A stretch of 50,167 nucleotides of DNA from assembly GCA_964019335.1 (NCBI GenBank), contig OZ025765.1, positions 1 through 50,167 of the forward strand, written 5' to 3'. Below, in pieces: positions 1-28,620 of this stretch. The notes beneath the pieces were generated by a model, which was not told where the DNA came from, searched no databases, and was given only the letters and a program-made list of their open reading frames with translations. The DNA is from Diplonema japonicum (taxonomy: Eukaryota > Protista > Euglenozoa: Diplonemea). How positions within the stretch are numbered: the stretch's first letter is position 1; the number at the start of each line of letters is the position of its first letter. The translations under genes were made by a program, and so were the position numbers.

Positions 1-227
1 GTTTGCGGGTTTGCGGGTTTGCGGGTTTGCGGGTTTGCGGGTTTGCGGGTTTGCGGGTTTGCGGGTTTGCGGGTTTGCGGGTTTGCGGGTTTGCGGTTTG
101 CGGGTTTGCGGGTTTGCGGGTTTGCGGGTTTGCGGGTTTGCGGGTTTGCGGGTTTGCGGGTTTGCGGGTTTGCGGGTTTGCGGGTTTGCGGGTTTGCGGG
201 TTTGCGGGTTTGCGGGTTTGCGGGTTT
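1..227 (+). repeat. Telomere-like 8-bp tandem array (GGGTTTGC)n, ~28 units, running off the window edge
   Basis: Directly visible. Units are perfect apart from one missing a G near 92-98. The G-rich strand is the + strand. Confidence 0.97.
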
Positions 228-301
228 CAGGGAAAAAAAAAAAAGTTTCACATCTTCCTATGGCGGGGGGGGGGAGAACAGCCCCCCACACCCCCGCTGG
301 C

Positions 302-3300
302 CTATCTGGCCAGCGAGCCTTTGGACCTCTTCTTGTGGGGTATGGGCCCCACCCGTGCCCTCCCCGACTCGAGCTGCAGCCAAGCCACCGCACTGTTCAC
401 CGGGGCCCAGTTCTCCTTGTTGCGCACCTTGACCGTGTCCCGCACCAGGTCGTCGCTCCCCAGCTCTTCCATCAACCTGTGCTCCGCCAAGAATTTGAAC
501 TGGGGCCCGGTCATCCCCTTGAGCTCACCCCTGCATATGTTGGCTTCGACCACGGTGCCATCCGCCCCCGTACCCTTCAGATAGATGTAGCCACCCTCCA
601 CACAATCCGAGTCAGTACTGGCCGATCGGGCCCGGGCCCGCTTCTTGTCCTTCTTGCTCCACTTCAGCTCTTCCAGGGTGGGGAGGTCCGTGGCAACCAC
701 CTCAGGCCGCCTCTCCCTGTCTTCCTCCTTCTTCCGGGCCAACAGCCCAAGGTACCTCTCAAAGGAGACGTCCTCGAACAACCCCGGGACCGTCACCACC
801 GCTGACTGCAGGTCGACCTCTTCAACACCCATCTTCCGCAGATGGTCCTGGACAGTGCGCCTCGTCTCCTTCTCGCAGGGCCCCCTCCCCTCGTAGACGT
901 CGAGGGTGACCTTCCTTCCATCCCTCACCCACGCCTTCACTTTGATCAGGTCCTTGACCTTTCCCACTGGGGCCCTTATCCTTGCGTCGCACCTCTCCAA
1001 GAACTCACGTAGTGTCACCTTGGTAGCGCCGGCTCCCGCCGCAATGCCCACTACCCCTTCCTTCCCCGGTGTCGGGTGGTGTCTGCACCCCCGGGTCTGC
1101 AACTTGACCACCCTCCATGCCGTTTCCAGAGTCCCCTTGAGCACGCCACCCTTGAAACGAACAGGTTGCACCGCCGAACACCCACACGCGTACGTGATCT
1201 GGAAATCCTGGACCGTCCTCGGGAACTCGAACTCGCGGTATGTTTCCGACTTCTGCACCTCACAACCCACAATGCGGCTGCGGCGCTCTCCGTCCGACCC
1301 ACCTTCCAAGCTTGCGAAGTACTGCTTTACCATCATGTATCCAAGTCCAGCGATACCAATCTGGCCAGCCATAGCCACCTCCAGTGGAACACCCAGCGAC
1401 TCGGCCTTCGCAAGAAGCATCTCCTCAGTCCTCTCCCTTCCAGGGTCCGTTCCTTCTTCAAGGATGATCTCCACCCGGCCCTCGAACTGGATGATGAACT
1501 TGAGCAGTCGGTCCCCCGGCCTCGCCCTCAGTGGCACCATCGCTCTCGGAATTGGGATGCCCATCACCACATCAATCGGGTCAAGCTGAACGAAGTCTCC
1601 CCCTACTTCCACCTGCTGTTCCCTTTCCGGTGCCCCGACTCCCATCAGCTGATCTCCCTCCGGCGTCTGGATCCCACCCCTAGGTGTGTCAGGCCCCGAC
1701 TGGCTGCCTCCGCTCGGTGCGTTCCCGCCCTCTTTGGTCCCTTCGGGGGCGTCATCCGCCTGCGGCTTCAGAGTCCTCCCACCGCCCTGTCTCTTCGCAG
1801 CTTGTTCCCTACAGAATTCGCTCACGGTCATCTTCCTCGTAGCAGTTGTCGCACTCTGGTCCCCCTTGTTCGAGTCCCTCTGGGCCTCCGTATCCCCCTT
1901 AGGACACTCGTCCAAGGTCTGGTTCACCGCAGCGTCAGTCGCCCCTTGTCTCTTCCCATCTTCCTGGGCCTTCGGGTCAAGCCCCCCTCCCTGCCCAGCC
2001 CTCTCGCTGGATCCTGTTCCGGCCATCTCCGTGTCTTCTCCTCCCGGCGAGGCTGCTTCGAGTCCTGCTCCCGCTTTCCCTTGTGTTCCACCCTCCACCG
2101 GTTCCGCCTTTCGCTGCTGCTGCATTCGGGCGTCCAGGTCCTTCTTCGTCTGCTCCAGAAGGGCATCCAGCTGGTGGGCCACCGTGATTGGGGGTCCGCC
2201 TCCCTGTCCCTTCACTTCCCTCTCGGACGACTCCTCAGCTTCGGTGGTTTTTTCATTGCCGAAGGAGTCCTCTGTGAGGTCAGTGTTGGATTCAGTGTTG
2301 GGTTCGTTGTTCGCTTCCACGTTGTCCTTTTTTTCCTCTTCGCCGTCCGGTACCGGGGGCCCTGGATCCAACTGTACAGGCCCTTTGACTAACAGCGCCC
2401 CTGCTATCGATCTCATCATGGCCGTTGACACCTCTTGGACCACACGCCTGTGTATCGAGACTCTGTCCCCGTGAGCCCGCGCAGCTATGCTCCTGGACAG
2501 TTTCTTCGTGAGGTAGACTGCTGCCTCCCCGAACCCCCCAAAGGTCTCCATCGCGAAAGGTACAAAGGCCACGCGTGTCTTGGCGAGCTCCGCCTCATAC
2601 TTCTGGCGCTTGTAGTGTTCCGCCTTCGCCGCTGCGTACCCCGCAGTCTTCGCCGCCTGGTTGACACAAGACTCGTTCCTCGGGTGCACGATGACCGCGT
2701 CCATAGCCATTGGGCGGGAACCCCCCACCCCACCTGGGAAGAACACGTCCGCCGGGCGCTGGGACGACCCCGGGATCAGCCCCGTCTTCTCCATCGTTGC
2801 GCTCACCCCGGCCCACTGACAGTGTCTGTGGATGGTCTCCTTCACCCGGTCGTGCCTCGCAATCCTGGCGTTGCCGCATCCCTGGGCATGGTCACCCCAT
2901 ACGTCCATCCCCTCAGTCTTGCACCTCGGGTCGTGGCAGCTCTCACCCTGCTTGTAGACCGGAGCCCCCAACCACCACTTGATCAGAGCCCCAAACTCGT
3001 TGTCCGACAGCTGGTTGTAGAAGTCAGGCGTCGCCGTCAACCACGCCCCCGCATAGTGCATTGACTCCGACATCAACCTCGCTCTCGAGCGTGCATCTGC
3101 TTTCGCCAAGAGGTCCTCCAGCGCCTTCTCATCAAGCACCCTAGAGAGCCACCTCTGGCTGCAGATGTGGGGGGCCTTGGCCACCATGTCGGGTGTAATC
3201 TGCATGCCGCCTTTCGTCCTGTTGAACCACTCGAGCCAGCTCCCCCATACACCCCCTTCCAGCCCATGTTCGTATTTGGGATCCAGCTCCTTGCACAGCT

Positions 3301-6300
3301 TCATCGTCGACGCCCTCGAAGCCATGTTGGCCGCGCGCAGGTGCTCCTGGCAGCTCCTCATCCCAAGCCCACCGACTTTTACGGACAGTTTCGCCTGCTG
3401 CCATTCTTTCGACCCGCTCTCGAACTGCATGCCGCACACCTTCGACATCGTCTTCCGCACCATCTCGTCGAACCTGTGCATGACCCCTCCCACATGCGAG
3501 TCTGGGACCACTCTCATGTAAAACACCAGTTTGCTGTATGAGCTGCAATACCGGAGAAGTGTGTACCCTGTCTGCCTCCCCACCTTGGTCAGCATGTCGA
3601 AGTTCTCTTCCAGCGCGTCCAAGCGTTTGTTCAGAAAGGCTTGCGTGTACTCCGGCGATCCTATCGGCGCCCCCAGGAGCATGAAGTTCCTCTCTTTGTG
3701 GAAATTCTCTTCTGTCAGGCCATCGAAGCCTGTGTCCTCCACTGTCTGGGGGAGGTCGCCACTAACCCATATGAGCTCGCACTTCTGGGGTTTCACTTTC
3801 AGCCCTATCATTCCGCTCAGCTCACACAAGATGTTGTACGCCTTTCTCACTTCATCCACATTCCCCACAAGGACGCCATCGTCCAGGTAGAACTGGAGGA
3901 TGTCCAGGTTGCAGTCTTCACTTATCTTGTTCACCAGGGGTTGGATGGCCAGAGAGAACAGCAGTGGTCCCATCGGGTCCCCCTGTTGCACCCCTTCCTG
4001 GGACTTAATCACCTTTCCGTTGTAGTATAATTGGGAGGGCACCCTGTAGCACCAATCGGCCCACGCATACAGCCCCGACGCTTGCTCATAGGCCTGTGAG
4101 CACAGCTGTCTCCGACAAACACTGTTGAAGGCGTTGGCGTAGTCGATCTTGAGGATCACCTTGTTTTCCTGCTTGTTGCCCCGTTCCCTGTCCACATACT
4201 GCCTGATGGTGTGTATAGCCGCCTCCATTCCAGCAGGGACCGATACCCCCACCTGGCCGCCTTTCTTCAGGTACGAAGAGGCCACTTCCGGAGCGATCTT
4301 CTTCACAAGGGATTTCCCCACCAGCCGACGCAGCACATCCCCAACGGCTATGGGCCGCACGTCCCTGTCGTTCTTCTTGAGGGCCACAAGGTTCGCCCCT
4401 GCCATCAGCGGAGCCACCTCCCTAGGGGCCGTGCCTCTAGCTAATGCGTTGACTGCCCTCGTCACCGACATCAAACAGCCTTGAGACTCAAAAGCTCCGT
4501 CCACCGCGTCCTTGATGTGCTGGGCTCTCAGACCAGTCGGTCCCGCAGCAGTCCCCCTCGGGAAGTCCCTGATTGCGTCCAGCACTTCTTCCGGCAAGAC
4601 TTCTACCGCTTCCTTCGTCTTCGCCGGGTTGTCCCATTGGGGGTGTAGTGGCTCTGGATGTTTGCTCTGCAGCGCTCTCCAACAATCCTCATTGTCTTCC
4701 GCCAGCCCCTGGGCTACAAGCGCCGCGTTTCCTGCCGAGAACCTCCCTTTGCTGCACAGTTCCGTGGCCCTGGCGACCTTAGAGACCTCGTCGTTCTTAG
4801 GTTCCCCCTTCTCACCTGATTCCAGCTTATTCCAGAGGGCCATGTAATTTCCCTTCTCCCACTCCTCCAATCTGGCCTGGACACTCAGCTCCGTCTCCTT
4901 GTCCCGCTTCTTCCCTCCCCTCTTCTTCCACAGGCAGGCTTTGGGGAGCATCGCCACCAGCAGCCAAGCCTCCTCTGTGTTGTCCTTCACCGCCCGGCCC
5001 AGAGTGTGCTTAAGGGTAAGCCCCCACAGTCTTTGAAGGCTCGTCAGGATCGACCCCATGGTCGTGACGTTCATGGCGGCTATGGCTTCCAGGCTGGGTA
5101 ACTCGGTCCTCGTCGGGGCCGGCGGGGGGGTCGTGTATTCCCCTTCCCTTCGCACCGCCTTTTTGCACTCGTCGTGGCACCCCTGACCCTTCCACACACA
5201 GCCCCTGCACACCAGGCACCTCTTGAGGTCCAGTCTCCTCAGAACACTCTCCAGGATCTCATCACTCTCCAGGTGCCCATCCAGGTGACACTTCCATACC
5301 CTTGTCGAGTTGAACGGGGTCGTGCTTTTGCACTTCGACCTAGCGCAGTTCGCCACCGGACAGTACAGGAATTGCTGGTTCCTTGCCCCCATCTGGTCCA
5401 ACACCCCTGCCTTCCCGTATCCAGGGATTGCACGGTCTATTATGTCCCACTCCCCGATGTCCTCACCCGGGGCCTCGGAGGGTTGCTTACCTGCCTTTTG
5501 TAGAGCAACCGATTGGGACTCATCAAGGAGCATCATCATCGACTCCTCCTCTCCGACTGCATACTCGTAGTGGTTGCCGTTGTACGCCAGCACCACCACC
5601 TTCTCATGGTCGGAGTTGTACTCCCCTATCATCAGGACTGGGTTGTTCCCCCCAGCAACCACGAGTATCGTGCGGCCAAACGCTTGTGCTGCGGCTGCCA
5701 GGCACAAGTGGTTCCACGTCGCCGCTGTGCCCATCCCTTCCAAGTACCGGTCCCAACCCTCGCTGCAAAACGGGGCATAGTGCTCCTCCCGGTGTTTCAT
5801 CCATTCTACAACCTCGCTCCTGATGTGGGTGTGGTCCCCGTAGGCTTCCCCGAGCGAACCAGCCAGGGTGTGGAACATGCAGTTCCCGTCCTTCTCTGTC
5901 AATCTCCTTGTCAGCTTGAAGCTCTTCATGATCTCGTCCACTGACTTGCCAGCCCTGGGTTGTTTGTTGGGGTTCCACAGATTCCGCTGCCTGTGTAGTG
6001 CACAGTGCATCTGGTTCAACGAGCACACCACAGCACACGTTCCACAGAGGTTCACCTTCATGTTCCTCGCCTGCTCTTGTTTCACAAAATGATGGTGGAC
6101 CGCATTGAGGTGTTTAACTAGACAGCTTGCCACACTGGTGTGGAAAGAGCAGCCTTCCATCCGGCATTGATGTTTGTCTGTTCCTTCTTTTTCCCCCTCC
6201 TTCTGCGCCTCCGTGTGCTCATCATCCAAATCCATGGGGGGAGTGTCACCACCTCCTTGCAACGCGTCCCCTGCCAGCGTCAAGTCCGCAAAGGGGTCCA

Positions 6301-6565
6301 GGTGTTCGGCCTGAAAGAGCTTATCCTCCGTCTCAGCTCGTTCCTTCGCTGCTTGCTTGGCGTCCTCCTTCTTTTTTCTGCGTCTTGAGCTTCTAGGCGG
6401 GCCCAAGTACACCGGCAGGTAGTGACCTCTCGATCCGCATCTTGTCTTCCTCAGCTTTACCGGTCCGAATCTCTGGGTCAGGTCAGCACCAGCTTTCCCC
6501 ACCATCACTTCCAACATGGCCCAGAGCGACATCAGCCCCCCTATCCAAACTGAAGTGCTTCCCAC
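302..6565 (-). CDS. Retrotransposon polyprotein: C2H2-like Zn fingers, OTU cysteine protease, reverse transcriptase, CCHC plus restriction-like endonuclease, long C-terminal extension
   Basis: OTU: DGNCMF...YNGNHYE (~5560-5910). RT: GPTGLR, RPIAVG, KIDYANAFN, GVQQGDPMGP, YLDD (3878-3889), GGLG. RLE: CHDPRC..DHAQGC, RHD, RPADV, KRQKY, PFAMETFGG. These are CRE-clade-type motifs. The listed start is a GTG; the true start is probably upstream. Confidence 0.93.
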   Translation of the reverse strand: MGSTSVWIGGLMSLWAMLEVMVGKAGADLTQRFGPVKLRKTRCGSRGHYLPVYLGPPRSSRRRKKKEDAKQAAKERAETEDKLFQAEHLDPFADLTLAGDALQGGGDTPPMDLDDEHTEAQKEGEKEGTDKHQCRMEGCSFHTSVASCLVKHLNAVHHHFVKQEQARNMKVNLCGTCAVVCSLNQMHCALHRQRNLWNPNKQPRAGKSVDEIMKSFKLTRRLTEKDGNCMFHTLAGSLGEAYGDHTHIRSEVVEWMKHREEHYAPFCSEGWDRYLEGMGTAATWNHLCLAAAAQAFGRTILVVAGGNNPVLMIGEYNSDHEKVVVLAYNGNHYEYAVGEEESMMMLLDESQSVALQKAGKQPSEAPGEDIGEWDIIDRAIPGYGKAGVLDQMGARNQQFLYCPVANCARSKCKSTTPFNSTRVWKCHLDGHLESDEILESVLRRLDLKRCLVCRGCVWKGQGCHDECKKAVRREGEYTTPPPAPTRTELPSLEAIAAMNVTTMGSILTSLQRLWGLTLKHTLGRAVKDNTEEAWLLVAMLPKACLWKKRGGKKRDKETELSVQARLEEWEKGNYMALWNKLESGEKGEPKNDEVSKVARATELCSKGRFSAGNAALVAQGLAEDNEDCWRALQSKHPEPLHPQWDNPAKTKEAVEVLPEEVLDAIRDFPRGTAAGPTGLRAQHIKDAVDGAFESQGCLMSVTRAVNALARGTAPREVAPLMAGANLVALKKNDRDVRPIAVGDVLRRLVGKSLVKKIAPEVASSYLKKGGQVGVSVPAGMEAAIHTIRQYVDRERGNKQENKVILKIDYANAFNSVCRRQLCSQAYEQASGLYAWADWCYRVPSQLYYNGKVIKSQEGVQQGDPMGPLLFSLAIQPLVNKISEDCNLDILQFYLDDGVLVGNVDEVRKAYNILCELSGMIGLKVKPQKCELIWVSGDLPQTVEDTGFDGLTEENFHKERNFMLLGAPIGSPEYTQAFLNKRLDALEENFDMLTKVGRQTGYTLLRYCSSYSKLVFYMRVVPDSHVGGVMHRFDEMVRKTMSKVCGMQFESGSKEWQQAKLSVKVGGLGMRSCQEHLRAANMASRASTMKLCKELDPKYEHGLEGGVWGSWLEWFNRTKGGMQITPDMVAKAPHICSQRWLSRVLDEKALEDLLAKADARSRARLMSESMHYAGAWLTATPDFYNQLSDNEFGALIKWWLGAPVYKQGESCHDPRCKTEGMDVWGDHAQGCGNARIARHDRVKETIHRHCQWAGVSATMEKTGLIPGSSQRPADVFFPGGVGGSRPMAMDAVIVHPRNESCVNQAAKTAGYAAAKAEHYKRQKYEAELAKTRVAFVPFAMETFGGFGEAAVYLTKKLSRSIAARAHGDRVSIHRRVVQEVSTAMMRSIAGALLVKGPVQLDPGPPVPDGEEEKKDNVEANNEPNTESNTDLTEDSFGNEKTTEAEESSEREVKGQGGGPPITVAHQLDALLEQTKKDLDARMQQQRKAEPVEGGTQGKAGAGLEAASPGGEDTEMAGTGSSERAGQGGGLDPKAQEDGKRQGATDAAVNQTLDECPKGDTEAQRDSNKGDQSATTATRKMTVSEFCREQAAKRQGGGRTLKPQADDAPEGTKEGGNAPSGGSQSGPDTPRGGIQTPEGDQLMGVGAPEREQQVEVGGDFVQLDPIDVVMGIPIPRAMVPLRARPGDRLLKFIIQFEGRVEIILEEGTDPGRERTEEMLLAKAESLGVPLEVAMAGQIGIAGLGYMMVKQYFASLEGGSDGERRSRIVGCEVQKSETYREFEFPRTVQDFQITYACGCSAVQPVRFKGGVLKGTLETAWRVVKLQTRGCRHHPTPGKEGVVGIAAGAGATKVTLREFLERCDARIRAPVGKVKDLIKVKAWVRDGRKVTLDVYEGRGPCEKETRRTVQDHLRKMGVEEVDLQSAVVTVPGLFEDVSFERYLGLLARKKEEDRERRPEVVATDLPTLEELKWSKKDKKRARARSASTDSDCVEGGYIYLKGTGADGTVVEANICRGELKGMTGPQFKFLAEHRLMEELGSDDLVRDTVKVRNKENWAPVNSAVAWLQLESGRARVGPIPHKKRSKGSLAR

Positions 6566-6619
6566 CAGAGTGCCCCCTACTGCTAGCCAAGCGAGCTCCC
6601 CAGCGGACCATTCATCCCC

Positions 6620-7171
6620 TCAGGGCCCCACCTGTACCCTTGACCTGCAGGTGGTCCTCCTGTTGCTCCCCAGCCTCTTCCACAACACTGCCACATGCAG
6701 GAAGGAGGGGGCCATCCCAATGCCCGCCCCCAGCACCTGCCTCACCCCTGGGATCAGCAAGAGGGAGACCAGGGCGACCCAGGCCCACACCCCCAGGTGC
6801 TCCCATCTCACCCCTTCCTTGCTGTGTCCCGTCCGTCTGCGGTGCCTCCTTGTGCCAGTTGCAGCCCCAGGTGCCAGGATTCTGGGTGCCAGGGGTTGGG
6901 CTCCAGGCGTTCCCACCTCAGTCCACTTCAGCCCCATTGCAGGGTCATCTGGCTTCTGTTCCAGGGCGGCCTCGTGTTCCTCTCTGCGGGCCCTCCTCCT
7001 CCCTTCTTTCCTCGCACGACAGTGCCTTTTCTTCTCCTGTCTGGCAGCCTCCCTCGCCCCCTCCCTCGCCTTGGTCCTCTTCTCCCAACGCCTCTGAAGG
7101 GCCGTTTCGCTCCTGTGCCTCCTCCTGTTCTTCTTCCGCTTGGGCACTGGCTTAGGTTCCCTGCCACCCAT
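6620..7171 (-). pseudogene. Probable N-terminal part of the RT ORF (basic region plus hydrophobic segment), cut off by one in-frame TGA
   Basis: The ATG at 7171 is in frame with 302..6565. The only interruption is TGA at 6620-6622 (CCC TGA GGG); codons from 6619 down to 6566 are open. Confidence 0.6.
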
Positions 7172-7395
7172 GGCAATCCAGGGGGCTCTTTTCTGTCTTC
7201 TCACAAGGGTGTGCAGTGGTGCTCTCACATCGCTCACAGCCTCCACCCCAACCACACCTTGGCGGGCGGTGGGGGTGGGTGCTGGGTCCCCCTGGTTGTT
7301 TGAAAAGAAAAAAGGTTCCTCCTTGTTTGTTTTTTTTTTTTCTTTCCCTTCCACCCTCAAAAAAAGCCCCTGGCCCTTGGGGACCAGGGTGTACA

Positions 7396-7690
7396 CCTCC
7401 GTAGAGGGTCCAGAAAAAATGGGGGGCAGAGAGGGAGGGGCACTACCTTCTCTCGGGTGTGCTGTCTCTCCCTCTGCCTTTTTTTCCTCCAAAGAGGGTC
7501 TGTTTTTCACCTCCGTGGAGGGTCCCTCTGGAGAGGGCTCTATAAAAGAAAAAGGGGGGGACGAATGGGGGGGAGGAACACTACCCTCTCTCGGGAGTGC
7601 CACCTCTTCCCCTTTCTCTCTATTTTCCTCCGAAGAGGGTTCTAAAAAAAAAAGGGGGCAGGTGGGGCACTATCCTCTCTTGGGAGTGCC
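7396..7690 (-). repeat. Inter-ORF array of repeated RNA hairpins (5 x CCUC-NNNN-GAGG; 3 x GCAC..GAGA..GUGY)
   Basis: Small hairpins at 7396-7407, 7486-7497, 7510-7521, 7525-7536, 7627-7638. Larger ones at 7440-7462, 7577-7601, 7666-7690. Confidence 0.75.
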
Positions 7691-8694
7691 ACCCCCCCTT
7701 GCCCACAAAAAAGGGGATCTAAAAAAGGGGGTTCGTCTGTTAACCCAGGGGATGGGTCTTCCTGGGGTGTGCAGGTGAGCTTGGGGCCTACCACACACAG
7801 GGTGATCGACACCCTGACACCAGTGGACATCCCGGACGGGATGTGGTGCGTCCACTGGTGTCTTGCTTCACCTTCCAACAATGCCCATGAGAAGGGGGGC
7901 ACCAGGTATTTCGCCACCCTGTCCCCCCTCCTCATGACCATTGTGGTCTCGGCTCCGTACGAGAGGACTAGGACAATCGGTCCCAGCCTTGCGTCGTCCT
8001 TGTGGGCGGCAATCCCACAACCAGACTTGTACTTGTTGACAAGTACCTGGTTGGGGACCACCTCAAGCCCTGCGGCGGCGGCCACCTCCCTCACCCACCC
8101 CTCCGCCCCCCCTGGGATCCCTGTGGTGGGGCGCACCTTGGCGTTCGTCCCCTCCCACCAGTACCCGTATTGGAGGGTCTCCCTCCCTGAGTTCTCAGAC
8201 AGGGCCTCCCACTTTCCTGAAAGCAGGGCTTTCAGGAAGGCAGGGGCCAGGCCCGTCCTCAACCCAGGAGGGTGTTCACCATACACCAGTACCCACCCCT
8301 TTTTTTCTCCCTCTTTTCTTCCCTCTTCAACAATAGCAGGGTCAGCTGCAGGGGTCGTGGTTGCGGTGGTCGTGGCTGTGGCAGGGGCAGCTGCAGCGGT
8401 CTCAGTTGCAGTGATCAGGGTGGCAGGGTCGGCTGCGGCGTTCAGGGCGGCTGGGGCGGCTGTGGCTGTAGCAGTGGTGGTCAAAACCGCAGTCTCTGCT
8501 AGTGATTTTTTTATTTTATTATTTTTTTTTTCTAAAGGGGGGTGGGGGGATCTAGGGGGTGGGGATTCATACTGCCCAACCAGATTGCCTGGTTGGGTGG
8601 GTCTCGGCGCCGTGTGCTGTGGGCTGCAGGCTTGCTCCTGCAGGCTGCAGCTGCAGCTGTGGTCACCTCCTCCTGCAAGTCGTCTTGGATCCAT
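7642..8694 (-). CDS. AlkB-family 2-oxoglutarate/Fe(II) dioxygenase with Ala/Thr-rich N-terminus (retroelement ORF1)
   Basis: PNQVLVNKY..GIAAHKD (HxD at 7996-8004), LVLSYG, LLEGEARHQWTHHI, RVSITL(C). The ATG at 8694 follows an A-run ~170 nt downstream of the SL. Confidence 0.85.
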   Translation of the reverse strand: MDPRRLAGGGDHSCSCSLQEQACSPQHTAPRPTQPGNLVGQYESPPPRSPHPPLEKKNNKIKKSLAETAVLTTTATATAAPAALNAAADPATLITATETAAAAPATATTTATTTPAADPAIVEEGRKEGEKKGWVLVYGEHPPGLRTGLAPAFLKALLSGKWEALSENSGRETLQYGYWWEGTNAKVRPTTGIPGGAEGWVREVAAAAGLEVVPNQVLVNKYKSGCGIAAHKDDARLGPIVLVLSYGAETTMVMRRGDRVAKYLVPPFSWALLEGEARHQWTHHIPSGMSTGVRVSITLCVVGPKLTCTPQEDPSPGLTDEPPFLDPLFCGQGGVALPREDSAPPAPFFF

Positions 8695-8865
8695 TTTTTT
8701 TTTTTTTTTTGTTTTATAGTGTGTGTTGGGGGGGAGGGGATCCTTTTGTTGAGTGGCAGGCAGGCCGACAGGCAAAACAACCCCCCCAGACGACAGCGAC
8801 AACGGACAACAGACGCAGCAGCAAACCCAGGCAGAGGCAGCAGGCACCAGCAGAACACAAACAAC

Positions 8866-8903
8866 CAATAAAGTACAGAAACTGTAGCTTTAGAATCATT
8901 GGT
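8866..8903 (-). other. Spliced-leader (mini-exon) sequence, diplonemid type, in a retroposed context
   Basis: The minus strand reads ACCAATGATTCTAAAGCTACAGTTTCTGTACTTTATTG. Its 3' half is the conserved kinetoplastid/diplonemid SL end CAGTTTCTGTACTTTATTG. It is followed by GTTGTTTG rather than a recognisable SL intron. Confidence 0.92.
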
Positions 8904-8950
8904 GTGGGTTTGCAGGTTTGCAGGTTTGCGGGTTTGCGGGTTTGCAGGTT
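8904..8950 (+). repeat. Short decayed (GCGGGTTT)n array, ~6 units
   Basis: GTGGGTTT GCAGGTTT GCAGGTTT GCGGGTTT GCGGGTTT GCAGGTT. All variants are CpG to TpG/CpA changes. Confidence 0.9.
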
Positions 8951-9936
8951 AACAACCAATAAAGTAGTGGCTGTTCAGAATTCCATTTTCAGGACCAACT
9001 TGGGTGTTCAAAAAAAAAAATTTTTTTTACCCTCCCAGTGTTGTTATGAGAATGAGTTACCCCCCTGAAATTTTTGGATTTTTACTTACTTTTTACTTCA
9101 GAATATAGTTTAGAGATGTGTATTCCACCTAAACACCTTTCTGAACTTTTTGGTTTGCAGAAATGGGTTTATTAGGTGTTTTTAATATAAATTTCATGAT
9201 TTCTGGCTTTTTCCAGAAAAAAAATTTTAGGGTCAAAAATGGCTAAAGTGACCCCAAGTTTGGGGTCCCCTGGGAAAAAAAAATTTTTTTTTTGGCCAAA
9301 AATTTCCAAAAAAGTCTGTTTTGAGGGTGCTATAGGAGTGAGGGTCCCTAGAAAAAAAAATTTTTTTTTGCCCCCCCACCCCCCCACCCCCAGGTTTTTT
9401 CCTGTAACAACACTGAGCAGGTCTCTGGATGTGGAACTCTGAAAGTGTTTCAGCTTTTCCTGCAGCTCCTTCACCTTAAGCTGTGCAAGCCTCAGCTTTG
9501 CTTCCGTCTCAGAAAGGTGATTGGGGTTGGTTGAGGTAACTTCTACAAGGTTGTACACTTGTTCATCCACAGTTTTGGGAGGGAAGTGGAAAATGATTCC
9601 AGGCTCCTACTAACATACACAAGCAGCTGCAACCCTAGGAATGACACCAACAATCATACCATCCCAAGCCACTGCCTTGTCAGTTGCAGTTGGTATCGTG
9701 TTTTTACCACCAGTAGTTCTTCAATTTTAGTAGTGGCACATGGCTTTGAGGAGGAAGATGAAGACAAACAGGAACCAGTACTGTTACTCCTTTTTCTTTT
9801 CTTCTTGTTGTTGTTGTTGTTGTTGTTGTTGTCATCTCTCAGTACCTGTATAACATCTTTTCTTGTAGACATCTGTTTATACGTTTGAACTCCACAGCAA
9901 AAAAAAAGGGGGGATGTGGTGTTGTGGTTGTATCTT

Positions 9937-15889: not shown

Positions 15890-15900
15890 GTACTTTATTG
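15890..15900 (+). other. Possible SL relic (3' 11 nt of the spliced leader)
   Basis: GTACTTTATTG lies 20 nt upstream of the ATG at 15921, in sense orientation. Confidence 0.5.
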
Positions 15901-15920: not shown

Positions 15921-18068
15921 ATGAACAAAGACTGGACCCAGTTGCATAGTCTGCTGTCAGCACAGCCCTGCAGGTCCTGCAAAGGTGACACGGTGATGGT
16001 GCTGGGGTACATGGGGTGCGGGAAGACAGTGACAGTGCACTGCCTGGCGGGGTCGGACCTGTCTCTCAATCACTTCGAGGAGGTGGACATCTTGCACTGC
16101 GGCAAAGGGGCGCGTGACCTGGTGGTGGGGAACAAGTCAAGCAGTGTGTACCAGGTTGCAACAGCCGAAGATGGACTGCAGCTTGTCGACACGCCTGGCT
16201 GCGCAGGGTGAGCGAGGCAGCCCGCAGCCTTCAGCACGAGCTTCTGAAGAAGTGCGTCGAGGGTTGTAGGCAGCTGCGGTTCTTGGTGCTGCTCAACGTG
16301 CACCTTAACAGCAACAGGATGGATGCACTAAAACGTACGGCTGCTGACTGCGACAGGCTCTTCACCTCCTTCGGCTTGGAGTGCGCCCTGCAGGCCACAA
16401 CCTTCGCATTTACCTTCGGGGACAGCGACACATATTATAAAGACAAACCACTGCACTCGATCAACAAGGTTTTGGAGGACGCCCCACCTACCCGTCGTGC
16501 CGTCTACCGCGAGATGCAGCGTCAGGTACAGCAGCAAGGCACCCTGCTCATCAATATCTCCGATGTCACCACCACGAAAACCCGCCTGCTGCAGGCAAAC
16601 ACAACACCCGTCAGCTGCCCGCATGCGAAGCTCGACAGCAAGACGGAGATCTTCCTTGCAGGGCAAGTGGACACCCTGTATGCCAACATGCGGCGGGAGC
16701 TGTTTGGTGACATCCGCTCACAGTGGAGCTTTCTTGAGGACTTGAACAGCACCCTCTCTTGCAAGGAGACAACAAATCTGCTCCGGCAGTGGGAGAAGGA
16801 GGTGCATAGTTACAAAAGCAGCTCGAGGGCATCAAGGCTAGTTTGGAGCTGTACTTTGTCCCATGCACAAGCTCCCCTGCAGGCACTGTGCTGAGCGGGC
16901 ACGGATCCTTCGAGAGGCTCCGCGAGGCCTTTGGTAAACGGTGCCTTGGGCTGCCTTGGGATGCGGCAGATGCAGAGAAGCACTTCGCCGACAGCTGTTC
17001 AAAGCCAGCCCTGCTGCCCGTTTGTAACGATGTGAAGGACCTGTCACACGCGTGTTTCCAGCTCCTGCACAATGCGGAAGACAAGTTCATGAGGGAGTTC
17101 GACAAGATGCTGCGCCGCGCTGCCGGACAAGAGGGCTGCGATGTTGATTGCGAAGACACTCGACACACACAGAGGCGCCCTACACGACAACATGCGTAAG
17201 AAGCTACATGACATGCTGAAGGATGTGCTCGAAAAACCATGAAGTCGTTCACCACCGTGCACATCAGGCCTGTCGCCTACAGGGTGGACTTCCTACTGTC
17301 GGGGGCTGCTGGCCCGCTCTCCAGACACATTGACACTGCACTTGTGGACGACATCGAAGTCATGAAGAAACGGCTGGAGAGTGCTGTGTGTGAGGTGTTC
17401 GACTCCGTCCACCGAAAGGACGGGAGTACTGACAGAGATAGAGTTGAGTTCTGGCTGCAGGAGGTGCCAAAGATGCGGCACGAGTCACTGCAAGGGCTGA
17501 GGTGCCGTGTGGGTGTTCTGAAGGTGCGTTTGGAGATACTGTGGGGACCCTTGGCCGATGAGGCAGCGGAAATATTCTCGAAGCAGACACCCAACAGAGT
17601 CAAGCACGTTGTGGAGAGGCTTGCACTGCGCCGCAACGAGCCATGCGCCGACAAGGAGTTAGATGAACTGGACCAGAGACTGCTGAAAATGTGCACCATT
17701 CCGCTGTCCGTCCCCTTCATGCGCACCTTCGTCGATGAGGCACACTGCCCTGACCTGTTGCAAGACACCCATAGGGAATGCACCATGAAGCTCGAGGAAG
17801 TGAGAGGCTGGGGGTGCCAGCAGAGAAGGTGGTGAAGATGCTCAGCGAAAGGACACTGTCGCCTGAGATCGAGCAGGAGCTGATCTGGGAGGGGTACACG
17901 TCCTTCGAGATCTACTACGAGATCCACAAGCGGGCGGTGTTCATTAAGAAGCGTGACGAGGCGCTTAAGAAGCGGGGCATAAAGCGTATCAAGTACTGCA
18001 CACTGTGTTTGCGTATCGATTGCAATGTCAGTCCCGTTTCCTTCGATGTGGAGGTGGACTTGCCATAG
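15921..18068 (+). pseudogene. Fragmented gene with an N-terminal P-loop GTPase-like domain
   Basis: GYMGCGKT (Walker A) and LVDTPG (G3-like). Coding-like GC-rich sequence continues through five ORFs in changing frames (15921, 16208, 16843, 17239, 17778). Confidence 0.7.
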
Positions 18069-19018: not shown

Positions 19019-19512
19019 ATGAGTGTCACAGTGTTCGTAAAGAAAAAAGCGGAGATTGGTGTGCTCGTTTGTGTAGATGGAAGTTCAAACTGCTTTGGGA
19101 GGAGAAGATTCTCAGCAGGTTCGGGATAGAGAGGTCCAGGGGACTGCTGCCTCACTACTGCTTCTGAGGCGTCCCTCCAGGCCCACCTTGCCACCGCATT
19201 CTCCTCACCACCCTTCCAGCTCCATGCTGTGGCCGCGAGCCAAGGCATGTGGTTTGTTTTTTCAGTGCGCTTATGCGCATTTGCTTCCCCCCCCCCCCCC
19301 CCCCCATTTCTTCCAGCCTCTTTGTTCGAGCAGAAAACTCCCTGCCGATGGCCCCATCTCTACCTTCTCTGTGGGGATATACACTTTCCTTGTGATAGTA
19401 CTTAATCAAAGAGTAGTAGCTCCCTTTATATTTCCTTTCCTCGAGCCCATGTCAAAAAAGATCCACACACACACAGGTTACTTTAAAAAAAAAAAAAGAA
19501 GAAAAAAAAAGG

Positions 19513-22500
19513 ATGACGCTGGCTGCCGTGCTGGCGCTCGCCATGGCTGGGCTTCCCACCATGGAGCACTACAAGTACTCGCTGAGCGCGGGGGGCGACA
19601 TCCAGCTTCCGTTGGAGGGGGAGGAGGAGGAGCAGTTCTCGCGGGCTGCAGCGACGTTGGGGGCCACGCCGTTCACGTCGACGCAGCTGCTGTGGCCGAA
19701 CGGACACGCTCACTACTATGTGGAGACGGCGAAGACGAACGCGGGGAACCCTGCTGACCACTTCCTGCAGAGTGGGGACAGCAGGATCACGGCGGCTGTC
19801 GCACACTGGGAGACGCACACCTGCATCAGGTTCACGAAGTGCAGGTCGTATGCAAGCTGCCCGAAGCCCTTCATGTACTTCGTTTCCGACAAAAGTCAGT
19901 GCAACTCGTTCGTCGGGGTGCACTACACGAAGGTGAACCAGATCAACCTGCAGAAAGGCTGCTCCGTTGGCGCGACCATCCACGAGATCGGGCACGCCCT
20001 CGGCCTCGCCCACGAGCAGTCCCGAAACGACCGAGACCAGTACGTTTATGTGGACTTCAACCAGATCAAGTCGACCCCACCCTCAGACTTCAGGTCGAAC
20101 TTCTACAAATCGGGTACGAACGGGCGCGACATCGGCAGCTACGACTACAGGAGCATCATGCACTACGGGCCGACAGGCTTCGCCAAAGGATCGCTCCCGA
20201 CGATCGTCTCCCCGCAACCGATCGGGCAGAGGTCGGCCCTGTCTGAGGGAGACATCGCAACGATCCACTTCATGTACAACCGTTGCAAGAGACGGTTCCC
20301 GAAGCCGACCTGCACCTCGTCCCTTGGCAGCACCGCGACCCGGCGCGTGATCCCCTACTCCAAGCCCTTCACGGTGGAGTTCAATGCACTCTACGGATCG
20401 GGCATGACCGTGAGCTACGGTGGCGCGATGGCACCCCCTGGGCCCAGGATGTCGTACAGCAAGTCGTCTGGGTCTAGCCTCGGGAAGGTGGGGAACACGA
20501 AAGTGACCTTCACGCCTTTGAGGTGGCAGAGGGGAAGGGACTACACGATGCGAGCGACCTTCACTGGGAGCGACGGCAAGGCGGAGACGTGCAGCGTGGA
20601 CGTCACTGTGGCGGACTCCGACACGGTTTGCTTCGGGGTGGCCTCGACAGATCCGAAGGTCTGCTCGGGGAGGGGGACCTGCGGGACGGACCTCCTCGCC
20701 CCCTGCACCTGCGACGGGGCGTACGGTGGGCTTCAGTGCTTCGGCTACGCGAACTGCCCTGACAACCAGCTCCTCTCCTTCGATGAAGATGTTGGCAGTG
20801 TGAACAACTTTGGGGACATCGGGGTCGAGGTTGGCTTCGCAGCGAAGGGTGGCGGCTCCCTGCGTGTCGGCACTGTCGGAGACCCTTCTGCCAACGGGCA
20901 GGGTTCGCTCACCCTCACCAAGAACTCTAAACCCGAGCGCATCACCTTCTACATGTCGAAGTTCGCCGACCCCACGTCCTCACCCTCGATCTACTTCCAA
21001 GACAGGACTACCGGGTCGATCTGCTTCGTAACAGGGATCAACAACGGGGCGTGGCACCTCAACTTCGCCTCCATCAGTGCCGCCACCACCCCGAAGACCT
21101 TCTTCTTCTTCGACATCCAAGTTGACTGGGCGGCTTCGAAGGTTAGCGTTTCCGTTGACGGGAAGCAGGAGGTGAAGGACAGGTCGTTTGTTCATTCCTG
21201 TGACTCTGGGATGAACTACGTGGCTATGTTCAAGGGAGGGTACTACGATGAGTTCCACTTGTGGTGCACGAGCTACCTGCAGACGAGTGGCTCCCTCATC
21301 GAAGGGATCACGCAGGAGGGTCTCCGGGCAGGGGGTGCGACACTGACCCTGACGCTCGTTGGTGACCACGACGAGTGGGTGAACACCGCGGCCACGAAGC
21401 AGAAGGTTGTGGCGTCGATGGAGGCGAGCTTCCCGAACGCTGCTGGGTGGAACGCGCTCGAGTCGACGATGCTGGACACCTCTCTGGTCTCTGTCTCCGG
21501 AGCGGTGCTGACGATCGGTCCCCTGCGCCCCGCCCCGACCTTCTCCATCGAGGGGTCTGAGACGGTGTCCATCGGGTTCACGGCTGACATGTTCACGAGC
21601 GGCACCCCTCCTGCATACTCCAGGGATGAGGCTTCTTTCCTCATCCCTGGCGACTGCACCTCGGGTGTCTTCCTCCCCTTCGACAGCCTCTCTGACGAGA
21701 GCTCCAGGGTGGTTGAGGTCAGCAAGTCAGTGAAGAAAGAGGGAGCCGGGTCCCTCACTTGGACAGACTACCGTTACGTGTACGACATCCCGGTCGGTGG
21801 CATCCGCCCCCCCACCGCAAGCTTCTATGGAAGGGTCGGTAGTTCAGCATCCAGACTGACCTTCACGATGAAGGATTCTACTGGCCAGCAGCTTTCCATG
21901 ATCTTTAACAACAATGGGAAAATCGTCTTCAACACCGGGACTTGGAACTTCCTCTCAGTCACCATCAACCCCAACAAGTGGTACCTCGTGAAATTCGAGT
22001 TCAATTGGGCAACGAACAAGGTAAAGGTGAAGGTTGGTGGGCGACAGAAGTTCTCGGGCTCCTTCCCGAGCACTTTCAAGAACATTGCCACGCTGCGCCT
22101 GAGTTCCACCACCTCCTCCACCGGGGTGTACATCGACTCCATCCGCTTCACCTGTCCTGTGAGGGAGCCCCTCTTCGACGTGTCCCCCTCCTGCCCTGTC
22201 CCTGGGGAGGACGCGCCAGTCTTCCACATCTACCAGGCCTCCGACGCGCTGTCTCCCTCTGACCACCTTGCCATCGTGCCCGCGACCGCCACGGACTGCT
22301 CCTCTGCTGATGTGCAGTGCTCTGCCCTCGACGCCTGCTCGAGCTCTGTCGGGTCGCTTGTGCAGGTGGGTGGTGGTGCCACCGAGTGGAGCCCTGGAAC
22401 CCTCCCCTCCCTGAGCCCTCAGACAGAGTACAAGATGTGCTACTACCCTTCCAGCCACGGGAGCTACATCATGCTCGACAGTACTTTCACGACCTGTGGG

Positions 22501-24675
22501 TCTGCTGAGCCGACTTCTGCTCCTGACACAGATGCTCCTGACACGGATGCTCCTGACACTGATGCTCCTGACACTGATGCTCCTGACACCGATGCTCCCG
22601 ACACTGATGCTCCTGACACGGATGCTCCTGACACCGATGCTCCTTACACTGATGCTCCCGACACGGATGCTCCTGACACTGATGCTCCTGACACTGATGC
22701 TCCTGACACCGATGCTCCTGACACCGATGCTCCCGACACTGATGCTCCCGACACGGATGCTCCTGACACCGATGCTCCCGACACGGATGCTCCTGACACG
22801 GATGCTCCCGACACAGACACTCCTGATACCGATGCTCCCGACACGGATGCTCCAGACACAAAAGCACCTGACACTAATGCTCCTGACACGGATGCTCCAG
22901 ACACTGATGCTCCTAGCACAGAAGCTCCTGACACCGATGCTCCCGACACAGATGCTCCTGACACCGCCGAGCCAACTTCTGCGCCTGACACGGATGCTCC
23001 CGACACCGCCGAGCCAACTTCCGCTCCCGACACAGATGCTCCCGACACCGCCGAGCCAACTTCTGCGCCTGACACAGATGCTCCTGACACCGGTGCTCCC
23101 GACACGGATGCTCCTGACACAGATGCTCCAGACACCGATGCTCCTGACACAAAAGCACCTGACACTGATGCTCCTGACACCGCCGAGCCAACTTCCGCAC
23201 CTGACACACCTGCACCGAAGACACCCGCTCCGGACACGCCAGTGCCGATGGAGCCAGCAGCCCCAGTTGAGGTAGGGTGCTTCAGGGTGAGGTCCGGTGT
23301 GTTGAGCAAGGCGGTGTACAGGGGAGGGGGCAACACGGTGGACAAGTGTGCGACGCTCTGCAAGTTCCACGGGTACCGCTTCGCGGGCCTGAGGGGCAGC
23401 GAGTGCAAGTGCGGGGACAGCGTGGAGGCGGCGGAGAGGACGAAGACCTCTACTTGCGGGTGGAGGTGCAGCGGGAACAGCGGGGAGCGGTGTGGGGCGA
23501 CGAACTTCCAGACTGTGTACCTGACGGACGGGTCGGTGTACGAGGCACCGAAGGCGACGTACGCGGGGTGCTACAAGGACGGGGCTGCGAGGGTGTTCCC
23601 TGTGCGAGCCTACTCCAGCAGTCTGAACACGGTGGCGGAGTGCACGTCGGTGTGCTTCCACAACGGGTACGCGGTTGCGGGGCTGCAGTACGGGAAGGAG
23701 TGCTGGTGCGGGAGGGAGCTGTCGAGTATGAAGAGGGTGCTCGACGAGGACTGCGATGTGCCCTGCACGGGGGAGGCAGGGGAGGCTTGCGGGGGGATCT
23801 ACCGCAACACCGTCTTCACGAGGGACCCGGACCTGGGGTGCTACATGGTGGACAAGGCGGCGAGGGTGCTGGACACGAGGGTTGCTGCGTGGTCGCCGTC
23901 GTCGCCGTCGTCGTCGTGTCCCGAGGAGTGCGCGACGCGCAACTTCAAGTACTCAGGAGAGGAGGAGAATGGGTCGGAGTGCTGGTGCGGAAACGGTCCG
24001 ATCGACAAAATGCCGAGGGTGGAATCCTGTACAGGGAGGGCAGCAGCAGCTGTAAGCCACACGGAAGGGGAGCTGCACAGGAAGATCGAGGCCTCGTTCC
24101 TGGGGTGCTTCAAGGACAAGGCTGGAGACAGGATGTTCCCCCTCCGCGCCTACGGGAGCAACTCGAACACGATCGAGGCGTGCACCGCTGTGTGCTTCCA
24201 CAACGGGTACAGGATGGCAGCCATGCAGAACGGGAAGGAGTGCTGGTGCGGACAGGAGGTCCCGTCGAGTGCTCAGATGGTGCGGGCGGACGACTGCTGG
24301 AGCAAGCGGTGCACGGGGGACGTGTCGCAGTCCTGCGGTGATGCCTTCAGGAACAAGGTGTACGTGCAGAAGGGGAGGGAACCGGCGCCCGCCGCCTTCA
24401 CCTACGAAGGCTGCTACCGCGACGGCAGCGGCTCCAACAGGGCGCTCCCTGTGCGGGCCTACTCGAGCTGGGTCAACACGGTCGAGATGTGCACCGCAGT
24501 CTGCTTCCACAACGGCTACACGGTCGCAGGGCTCCAGTACAGGAAGGAGTGCTGGTGCGGCCACGCCATCTCTTCGGAGAAGATCTCAGACAGGCACTGC
24601 AAGTCCTCCTGCACCGGGAACTCCTCCCAGAAGTGCGGCTACGCCTACAGGCACTCCGTTTACAGGAAGGCGTGA
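19513..24675 (+). CDS. Secreted astacin (M12A) metalloprotease with EGF-like domain, PDTDA mucin-like stalk and five WSC domains (copy 1)
   Basis: Signal-like N-terminus, HEIGHALGLAHEQSRNDRD, SIMHY Met-turn, CSGRGTC..CTC..GLQC, and five GC(F/Y)..C..C..(A)G....EC(W/K)CG units. Confidence 0.93.
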   Translation: MTLAAVLALAMAGLPTMEHYKYSLSAGGDIQLPLEGEEEEQFSRAAATLGATPFTSTQLLWPNGHAHYYVETAKTNAGNPADHFLQSGDSRITAAVAHWETHTCIRFTKCRSYASCPKPFMYFVSDKSQCNSFVGVHYTKVNQINLQKGCSVGATIHEIGHALGLAHEQSRNDRDQYVYVDFNQIKSTPPSDFRSNFYKSGTNGRDIGSYDYRSIMHYGPTGFAKGSLPTIVSPQPIGQRSALSEGDIATIHFMYNRCKRRFPKPTCTSSLGSTATRRVIPYSKPFTVEFNALYGSGMTVSYGGAMAPPGPRMSYSKSSGSSLGKVGNTKVTFTPLRWQRGRDYTMRATFTGSDGKAETCSVDVTVADSDTVCFGVASTDPKVCSGRGTCGTDLLAPCTCDGAYGGLQCFGYANCPDNQLLSFDEDVGSVNNFGDIGVEVGFAAKGGGSLRVGTVGDPSANGQGSLTLTKNSKPERITFYMSKFADPTSSPSIYFQDRTTGSICFVTGINNGAWHLNFASISAATTPKTFFFFDIQVDWAASKVSVSVDGKQEVKDRSFVHSCDSGMNYVAMFKGGYYDEFHLWCTSYLQTSGSLIEGITQEGLRAGGATLTLTLVGDHDEWVNTAATKQKVVASMEASFPNAAGWNALESTMLDTSLVSVSGAVLTIGPLRPAPTFSIEGSETVSIGFTADMFTSGTPPAYSRDEASFLIPGDCTSGVFLPFDSLSDESSRVVEVSKSVKKEGAGSLTWTDYRYVYDIPVGGIRPPTASFYGRVGSSASRLTFTMKDSTGQQLSMIFNNNGKIVFNTGTWNFLSVTINPNKWYLVKFEFNWATNKVKVKVGGRQKFSGSFPSTFKNIATLRLSSTTSSTGVYIDSIRFTCPVREPLFDVSPSCPVPGEDAPVFHIYQASDALSPSDHLAIVPATATDCSSADVQCSALDACSSSVGSLVQVGGGATEWSPGTLPSLSPQTEYKMCYYPSSHGSYIMLDSTFTTCGSAEPTSAPDTDAPDTDAPDTDAPDTDAPDTDAPDTDAPDTDAPDTDAPYTDAPDTDAPDTDAPDTDAPDTDAPDTDAPDTDAPDTDAPDTDAPDTDAPDTDAPDTDTPDTDAPDTDAPDTKAPDTNAPDTDAPDTDAPSTEAPDTDAPDTDAPDTAEPTSAPDTDAPDTAEPTSAPDTDAPDTAEPTSAPDTDAPDTGAPDTDAPDTDAPDTDAPDTKAPDTDAPDTAEPTSAPDTPAPKTPAPDTPVPMEPAAPVEVGCFRVRSGVLSKAVYRGGGNTVDKCATLCKFHGYRFAGLRGSECKCGDSVEAAERTKTSTCGWRCSGNSGERCGATNFQTVYLTDGSVYEAPKATYAGCYKDGAARVFPVRAYSSSLNTVAECTSVCFHNGYAVAGLQYGKECWCGRELSSMKRVLDEDCDVPCTGEAGEACGGIYRNTVFTRDPDLGCYMVDKAARVLDTRVAAWSPSSPSSSCPEECATRNFKYSGEEENGSECWCGNGPIDKMPRVESCTGRAAAAVSHTEGELHRKIEASFLGCFKDKAGDRMFPLRAYGSNSNTIEACTAVCFHNGYRMAAMQNGKECWCGQEVPSSAQMVRADDCWSKRCTGDVSQSCGDAFRNKVYVQKGREPAPAAFTYEGCYRDGSGSNRALPVRAYSSWVNTVEMCTAVCFHNGYTVAGLQYRKECWCGHAISSEKISDRHCKSSCTGNSSQKCGYAYRHSVYRKA
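22505..23240 (+). repeat. Coding minisatellite: 15-bp PDTDA units plus a few 42-bp units
   Basis: Tandem cctgacacNgatgct units are directly visible. Confidence 0.95.
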
Positions 24676-27361: not shown

Positions 27362-27444
27362 AGCTTCGGGCAACATTTTATTTTATTTTGTAGGGGGTTC
27401 ATCCGCACCCCGGTCCCAAGCGCAAGACAGGTCCGAAGCCGGCT

Positions 27445-28620
27445 GTGATGAGGGGAACGCGTGATGCGGAGAGAGCCGCGGGTGCGAGACCAAGGACGGG
27501 TGCAAAGACGGGTGTTAAGAGGAACAGAAGCCCACCGCCCACATTACCGAAGAACGAGCCTCTCGTCATCACCTCCCTGAACGTCGCGTCCTTCAACAAC
27601 AGGATGGGGGAATGCAAAGGACTGGATCCCGATGTGTTCTGTGTACAGGAGACGGCACTGACGGCGACGGTACAGCGGGAGATTGAACTCTCTCTCGGGC
27701 GAGATGCGTGGGGGAGGGCCTACGAAAGACACTGGGGGAAACCACAACCAGGCCGGGTGGGCGGTGGAGTGGTGTCACTTACAGTCGCACAAAGGGGCGG
27801 GGTCGCGACCTTCGTGAAAAGGCCCCGAGCCTCTCTGAGGTGCAGCGCAGGAGACGAGCTGGAAGCGTACAAGAGCCGCTGCGTGCACACGAAGGTATCA
27901 TTGGACGGCAGCAAGCGATGGCTTCATGTGCTGAACGTCTACTGTCCTGCTGGCAATGAGGCAGTGCAAGCCAGGGAACGGGAGCAACTTCTGCATCACA
28001 TTCTGGTCAGGAAGCGAATAGAGCTGGGAGACGTGCCGATCGTGGTGATCGGGGACCTCAACTGCGAGGAGGATCGGTCGCCGACCTTAGAAAAGGCTTT
28101 GGCCTCGGACTGGGTTGATGCGGCGGCTGCATGTGCGGCGTTGAGCGGTGCGACACCCGAATCGACTTTGAAGAGGACCAACTCCCATTCTCGGATCGAT
28201 AGGGCGCTTCTGAACCCCCTTGCTGCACAGTTTCTGATACGCTGTTGGGTGCATGATGGCGTGGAAGGCTCAGACCACAGGTGCTTGTCGCTGGAGTTGG
28301 GGACAACGAGAATCCGGCGGGCAGTGCTGCAGTACTCGATCCCGAGGGAGATACCGGAGGTAGCGATGACAGAAGAAGACCCCGAGCCGTCGCTGGCGGA
28401 TTCCATCTTTGAGCGGTGCATTCAGGATAGGCAGGTGGACGAGGCCCACAGGGAATGGGCCAGACTCGCAGAACAGCATTTGATGCGGGGTTTCGCAGGG
28501 ACCACGGCGGGGGCTTACCTTGGCAGGGGTGAGACGAGGTTGCCGAAGCTGAGGGAACTGTGTCCACCTGCTACGGAAGAGATTGTCGGTGCGGTGTGCG
28601 ACCGACAAAGGAAGCTGTGA
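27445..28620 (+). CDS. LINE apurinic-like endonuclease (APE/EEP) domain
   Basis: SLNV, VQET, GGVA, NVYCP, GDLN, SRID, SDH motifs. Confidence 0.9.
   Translation: MMRGTRDAERAAGARPRTGAKTGVKRNRSPPPTLPKNEPLVITSLNVASFNNRMGECKGLDPDVFCVQETALTATVQREIELSLGRDAWGRAYERHWGKPQPGRVGGGVVSLTVAQRGGVATFVKRPRASLRCSAGDELEAYKSRCVHTKVSLDGSKRWLHVLNVYCPAGNEAVQAREREQLLHHILVRKRIELGDVPIVVIGDLNCEEDRSPTLEKALASDWVDAAAACAALSGATPESTLKRTNSHSRIDRALLNPLAAQFLIRCWVHDGVEGSDHRCLSLELGTTRIRRAVLQYSIPREIPEVAMTEEDPEPSLADSIFERCIQDRQVDEAHREWARLAEQHLMRGFAGTTAGAYLGRGETRLPKLRELCPPATEEIVGAVCDRQRKL

Follow-up and report, generated by a model that had tools for sequence, protein, structure and literature searches.

Retrotransposons of the CRE clade (SLACS, CZAR, CRE1 and CRE2) encode a reverse transcriptase (RT) followed by a CCHC motif and a restriction-like endonuclease, occupy a fixed site in spliced-leader (SL) RNA genes and end in poly(A). 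The RNA of SLACS reportedly begins at SL +1, and when a CRE element in an SL gene duplicates its target site, a complete exon is retained at its 5′ end. Both the targeting of SL genes and the duplications are described in published accounts of these elements (PMC12278014; PMC3636483); the latter, a 2013 review, says that its authors knew of no experimental data on CRE and NeSL transcription. NeSL-1 of nematodes, which belongs to another clade, is likewise a restriction-like-endonuclease element tied to SL genes, bearing a cysteine protease of Ulp1-like type at the N-terminus (PMC4640811), and is reported to make target deletions, not duplications (PMC3636483). The fungal telomere-targeted CRE/SLACS relatives MoTeR1, Cnl1 and FoTeR are depicted in PMC12857005 with C-rich sense-strand repeats at both ends, short and degenerate at the 5′ end and longer and clean at the 3′ end, and without poly(A); the 3′ ends of MoTeR and FoTeR run into telomere repeats (PMC12857005). 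In dinoflagellates, retrogenes carry genomic SL copies, often shortened at the 5′ end, that start a retroposed RNA and stem from trans-splicing of host mRNAs (PMC5585692).

We analyzed a window of 50,167 nt from Diplonema japonicum (contig OZ025765.1, positions 1 to 50,167) that contains an 8.7-kb, SL-headed element of CRE/SLACS type on the minus strand, set between repeats of the 8-mer AAACCCGC. Its 171-nt 5′ UTR (8695..8865) lacks A in the first 111 nt and has its first AG at 8744-8743; together, SL and 5′ UTR fold less well than shuffled sequences (z +1.86). ORF1 (7642..8694, minus strand; 350 aa counted from the first Met) combines an Ala/Thr-rich N-terminal part with an AlkB-like 2OG-Fe(II) dioxygenase domain (PF13532, E 3e-12; ALKBH8 3thp, E 4e-09). 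In this domain (7780-8301, minus strand), the NxY, HxD, H and R motifs are all present and the catalytic motifs intact; ALKBH8 is the nearest solved relative, and look-alikes in the Atlas fall mainly in viral clusters. A weak search for the AlkB domain inside a longer protein returned 0 hits at E≤1e-8 among 1,698 candidates. Orchid Gypsy elements also bear an extra ORF with an AlkB-type 2OG dioxygenase, but they are of LTR type and their m6A demethylase activity is described as shown (PMC9289625), whereas the domain here is predicted.

A 349-aa frame without a Pfam match (6620..7669, minus strand) lies in register with ORF2 and is split off from it by a single TGA in a CpG-type context. ORF2 (302..6619, minus strand; 2105 aa) shows, by Pfam and motif searches, an OTU protease in place of the Ulp1-like protease of NeSL-1, an RT (RVT_1, E 1.9e-16), a CCHC plus restriction-like endonuclease and a long C-terminal extension. 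Its residues 1228-1307 read C-x4-C-x10-H-x3-C-x6-RHD...E...RPAD...D; the endonuclease residues match the motif RHD...E...R/KPxD...D/E, defined as following the CCHC in PMC12857005, but the CCHC spacing falls outside the ranges given there. The closest named relative is the D. papillatum 'Retrotransposable element SLACS 132 kDa protein' P0136 (38% over 1144 aa), the 'SLACS' names of D. papillatum proteins being annotations by similarity; some of these proteins have an OTU-like domain ahead of the RT. No named trypanosomatid CRE reference was returned among the protein matches. The 3′ UTR (228..301, minus strand) ends in a T run and CCCTG, without poly(A), and abuts a AAACCCGC array of 28.5 near-perfect units (1..227, minus strand) that continues past the window edge. 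At the 5′ end, the 8-mer returns in the same orientation as about 5.5 units (8904..8950, minus strand), whose variants are all CpG-type changes. This copy resembles the fungal relatives in its C-rich sense-strand repeats, short and degenerate 5′ and longer and clean 3′, and in lacking poly(A), and departs from them in having an SL head, which the account in PMC12857005 does not give them, a 5′ end that faces genes and an 8-mer that is only a candidate telomeric repeat.

Read on the minus strand from 8903 to 8866, the head of the element corresponds to SL nt 2-39, the +1 A being absent by comparison with full-length SLs. By hand count, this 38-nt segment agrees at 35/38 positions with the 'Euglenozoa 14' SL consensus, which we take to be diplonemid. 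That consensus is a row of Table 1 in PMC3795323, and the SL exon of D. papillatum is given as 39 nt (PMC10161547). Internal full-length SLs in two metagenome loci (L040 and L089), both with one extra leading A, are 37/38 identical to the segment, and the sole mismatch, T for C at SL nt 7, is a CpG-to-TpG change like the remaining changes in this copy. The 19-nt 3′ part of the SL has a single match in the window, where shuffled sequence predicts 0.01; Rfam gave no match within the window. On these sequence comparisons, we regard it as confirmed that 8866..8903 is a diplonemid-type host SL exon, nt 2-39, heading a retrotransposon. The first-pass annotation had proposed a host SL joined straight to the element's 5′ UTR with a satellite right upstream, and all of this was borne out: the match to full SLs from metagenome contigs, the UTR preceding ORF1 and about 5.5 decayed 8-mer units at 8907-8950 agree with it. 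Tandem SL pieces stand at the ends of six other metagenome contigs (L008, L029, L044, L060, L066 and L080) and are either assembly artefacts or an SL next to a relict SL.

To place the head in its family context, we compared the window with contigs of seven public sequencing runs (X1, X2, X3, X4, X6, X8 and X11), of which X1, X2 and X11 come from three studies; X2 and X3 appear DNA-like and X8 RNA-like. A record was taken to bridge a junction with at least 31 letters on each side, and statements on loose-end sequences refer to those listed for the seven runs, nearly complete in X2 and X3 (16 entries each, against 15 and 16 partly matching contigs); 172 and 39 further rows of the two comparisons fell outside these lists. 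At 8863, two bases into the element, the CpG-intact base makes up 382,734 of a depth of 395,341 in X1, 82,128 of 83,070 in X4, 1,742 of 1,850 in X2 and 6,945 of 7,028 in X3. The SL-element junction is bridged by an X1 record (8812-8897) and an X4 record (8805-8902), and several further records cross it with 14-28 letters. This junction is the normal state of the retrotransposon family, for which single-record depths (707 versus 17 in X2; 2,802 versus 84-121 in X3) give a rough copy number of 25-40. The annotation's question of whether copies begin with the SL is addressed by the CpG-intact junction, which accounts for nearly all depth at 8863 in X1-X4. In X8, 1,355 contigs matched, 1,174 of them at 99+ identity and nearly all on the SL, with a 5′ UTR depth of 201; we did not accept this run as proof of an SL-element transcript, as its two crossing records hold just 23-26 letters on the SL side, below 31. 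In a single X1 contig, the SL end is linked to a position 119 nt inside the 5′ UTR (8746->8866), a joint that we rejected as splicing because no AG precedes it. A candidate intron from the GT at 8865 to the first AG at 8744 had no supporting joint in a comparison that covered just 13 letters beyond that AG.

The contigs of X1, X2 and X11 also reveal what else adjoins the exon. The best-supported alternative sequence after it begins GT-ACCC, and the best-supported alternative before it ends in GGTT plus the +1 A; these are likely the intron and upstream flank of the SL gene. After the exon, the element reads GT and then (C/T)GTT where the likely intron reads GT and then ACCC, so that both keep exon and GT (8864..8865, minus strand) and diverge at the next base, with loose ends before 8864 in 26 contigs of X1, 4 of X2 and 1 of X11. 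Of an SL RNA gene, with its 39-nt exon, upstream flank and intron, 8866..8903 holds nt 2-39 alone, followed by GT alone. Because the likely flank and intron are both absent, this is not an SL gene hit by an insertion, in keeping with the first reading of this locus, which found no SL-gene context and named the species' SL intron behind the exon as the sign of a real SL gene; the sequence instead leaves the likely intron directly after GT. Had an unrelated insertion struck a genuine SL gene, or a stray SL pseudogene, immediately after GT, the GT behind the exon would be explained, but the missing flank, the missing +1 and an identical junction in tens of copies make that hardly credible, and the family-wide junction already contradicts it.

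The position at which the SL begins varies among copies. Within the window it starts at nt 2 and, in a second partial copy, at nt 30; elsewhere, it starts at nt 26 on an 11.5-12.0-kb contig (X2, X3 and X4), at nt 6 in an X3 contig of 7,255 nt, which has just 21 nt of the 5′ UTR in common, and at nt 3 in an X4 contig of 528 nt with 374 other letters. The DNA adjoining the starts at nt 3, 6, 26 and 30 differs from the likely SL-gene flank, and long flanks unlike those of an SL gene occur at two or more other loci. Ragged starts fit incomplete reverse transcription of an SL-bearing RNA; a plain target remnant would always keep the SL-gene flank upstream. With five different breakpoints inside the SL, the transposition RNA most likely includes it. 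We consider it likely that the SL is carried on the mobile unit, as the first-pass annotation had suggested in placing it on a transposition intermediate.

This copy is CpG-deaminated. Compared with the public contigs, all 24 of the A>G/T>C differences listed within the element restore CpG, against a background of 0.25-0.31, and none of the 4 listed in the neighbouring repeat does so; the count rests on 28 A>G/T>C rows among the 40 of 64 differences listed and leaves aside rows of other types (4 in the element and 8 in the neighbouring repeat). Between 6500 and 11000, CpG observed/expected ratios are 0.0-0.43, versus 0.87-0.93 in several genes and another retroelement of the window. The depletion likely reflects 5mC silencing centred on the 5′ half of the element and the neighbouring repeat. 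The latter is a high-copy, CpG-free repeat (8968..9400, unstranded; CpG o/e 0.0), delimited by depth and by a loose end at 8968, that hosts the whole structure.

Upstream of the head, the junction between repeat and SL reads ...AAACCCAC|ACCAA, in which at most one A could be shared with the next repeat unit. Microhomology between AACC and AAACC, put forward earlier as an aid to 5′ joining, is not borne out, because such annealing would leave two or three A's and only one is present. At 8905-8915, X2 has a depth of 0, X3 one of 142, equivalent to about one copy, and X1 one of 1,181-2,573 (a few contigs), compared with hundreds to hundreds of thousands over the 5′ UTR; the satellite-SL junction thus looks near single-copy, and a repeat followed by the SL in this register is a trait of the present locus that is not demonstrable for the family as a whole. 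Depth over the 8-mer exceeds that over the element by a factor of thousands (25,000 versus 2-6 in X6; over 300,000 versus 6-25 in X11), so the repeat forms a large array of its own. AAACCCGC is a candidate telomere or centromere repeat; no diplonemid telomere motif was found in the literature searched. Another sequence joins the 8-mer array in 24 contigs of X1 and 15 of X4.

The second partial SL lies in an exact 16-nt direct repeat: 8951..8966 (minus strand), comprising SL nt 30-39 and the first 6 nt of the element, equals 8860-8875, with 3e-5 such repeats expected in the window, and recurs letter for letter in X4 record 22. The two 16-mers bracket only the 8-mer repeats and SL nt 2-29 (75 nt), and the 3′ flank of the element is repeat to the window edge. 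The arrangement may reflect a tiny earlier insertion of head plus repeat, slippage as the 5′ end was joined, or duplication of a 16-bp target. The joints 8610/8614->8919 and 8945->8390 resembled truncated copies attached to the repeat, but we set them aside, since they have a 21-letter side at 80% likeness or an unspecified side and since 8611-8640 is itself GC-repeat-like.

Elsewhere in the window, a second retroelement (27394-31688, plus strand), with an APE endonuclease and an RT in two frames, is not CpG-depleted. An exact 11-nt SL 3′ end lies at 15890-15900 (plus strand), 21 nt ahead of an ATG, where 0/100 shuffles gave any match; behind it, a frameshifted P-loop GTPase-like gene (15922-17900) is possibly a retroposed trans-spliced mRNA. 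Two paralogous astacin protease genes (19420-24675 and 33307-39765, plus strand) have five WSC domains and coding repeats of 15, 42 and 84 nt, and an 80-93-nt inverted copy of the end of each occurs at 31892-31984.

How the SL comes to be on the element RNA is the weaker step of our explanation. Our preferred reading, to which we give about an even chance, is that exon and GT are encoded in cis in the source copy, so that the SL is read from element RNA and is not trans-spliced in each round. A source copy in, or derived from, an SL gene would be transcribed from the SL start; the RT-endonuclease would nick the target and copy the RNA 3′ to 5′, mostly halting within the leader (at nt 2 here and at nt 3, 6, 26 and 30 elsewhere); the cDNA end would be joined with little or no homology; and this copy would have landed in the AAACCCGC array and later been silenced and CpG-deaminated. 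We favor such a source over trans-splicing, which we think unlikely, in which an acceptor-bearing source copy would be co-transcribed and trans-spliced and the SL-capped RNA reverse-transcribed almost to the cap. The evidence for an SL on the mobile RNA fits that scheme equally well. SL exons are joined near nt 39 to unrelated sequence in 5 contigs of X2 and 4 of X3 (at 8865-8867), and since both runs are DNA-like, trans-spliced RNAs have probably been copied into this genome; the SL end ahead of the broken GTPase-like gene suggests another case, and the dinoflagellate retrogenes with SL relicts offer a described precedent (PMC5585692). The GT shared with the likely SL intron is weak evidence for a cis source, because SL plus GT is common at ordinary transcript-like contig ends: a metagenome scan for SL, GT and a non-A base gave 114 loci, in 101 of which the SL stands at a contig end in transcript-like fashion, and 0/114 had a tblastn match to ORF1 or ORF2. 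Against trans-splicing, the junction sits at exon plus GT, as in the SL gene, and since the junction of SL-headed daughters lacks an AG, their continued production would require an acceptor-bearing source; among the loose ends listed for the seven runs there is neither an acceptor-bearing 5′ UTR nor a non-SL sequence upstream of the 5′ UTR. Of the trans-spliced mRNA intermediate proposed in the first-pass annotation, the SL on the RNA is likely to stand, but a splice-acceptor source is absent from the listed rows and the GT is kept; the accompanying premise, that SLACS-type elements carry no whole exon at their start, is weak in view of CRE target-site duplications in SL genes. Against the cis reading, no source copy was seen in an SL gene; contigs break inside the SL, so that no record spans flank, SL and element. 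Nor do the listed loose ends include an element 3′ end joined to a partial SL exon, as expected from copies resident in SL genes. Viral sequences gave 0 matches to the SL-element junction.

Two further explanations bear on the same observations. Permanent capture of the SL, with an internal promoter in the A-free 5′ UTR driving each copy's own SL-headed RNA and with no link to SL genes any longer, would account for the uniform SL-GT head with no other upstream sequence among the listed rows, for the unusual 111-nt A-free stretch behind the SL and for the varied sequences that lie 5′ of the SL in X2, X3 and X4 (agreement 0.5-0.57); it is nevertheless very unlikely, as the promoter is purely hypothetical, contigs cannot reveal transcript starts, and copies cut within the SL would lose their start site. 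Somewhat less remote, and still improbable, is a target duplication by a family that targets the SL and whose RNA ends in AAACCCGC repeats and read-through SL, which would give the full SL here a two-step origin: first an older copy starting at SL nt 30, then a 75-nt, 5′-truncated insert of repeats and SL nt 2-29 that entered this SL remnant and duplicated 16 bp. The exact 16-nt direct repeat around the insert, the same-orientation repeats at the element's 3′ end without poly(A), and the described habit of CRE elements of targeting the SL with target-site duplications (PMC12278014; PMC3636483) all speak for it. Yet repeat-SL junctions would have to exist in source arrays, and depth at 8905-8915 is nil in X2 and about one copy in X3, although repeat-SL junctions in another register would merge into mixed loose-end rows; moreover, the 3′ array contains no SL over its 28 units, and the 8-mer is far deeper than a tail would make it. 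Even under target duplication, the start of the older copy would lie within the SL.

With exon and GT encoded in cis, the element would by analogy behave as a SLACS/CRE element with an SL at the start of its RNA, sharing with that clade its domain order, its tie to the SL exon and its nearest named relatives, the D. papillatum 'SLACS 132 kDa' proteins. It departs from the clade in two features, residence in the SL gene, since this copy lies outside one, and 3′ poly(A), replaced here by a T run, CCCTG and the 8-mer array; variable-length SL pieces at dispersed loci and the AlkB-like ORF1 are further differences. From the dinoflagellate retrogenes as described in PMC5585692 it differs in that the SL heads an autonomous element. 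The literature searched, in which subscription journals are thinly covered, showed no account of diplonemid CRE copies that bear an SL head and lie outside SL genes.

Cap modifications at SL +1 are known from kinetoplastids. A bolder, and quite improbable, extension is that a CRE-type element left the SL array with the SL exon as its own head, that the AlkB-like ORF1 product strips base methylations from the SL-capped RNA so that the RT reaches nt 2 and stops solely at the modified +1 A, and that copies land both elsewhere and in the abundant 8-mer, possibly the telomere or centromere repeat of this lineage. Both CRE elements linked to the SL and retrocopies tagged with it are already known, and this is not a new kind of system. 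Its dispersed copies with variable SL heads are a genomic record of the 5′ end of the transposition RNA, and the family would show how a parasite of SL genes loosens its target yet gains a cap and a translation signal in an organism where all mRNAs need the SL.
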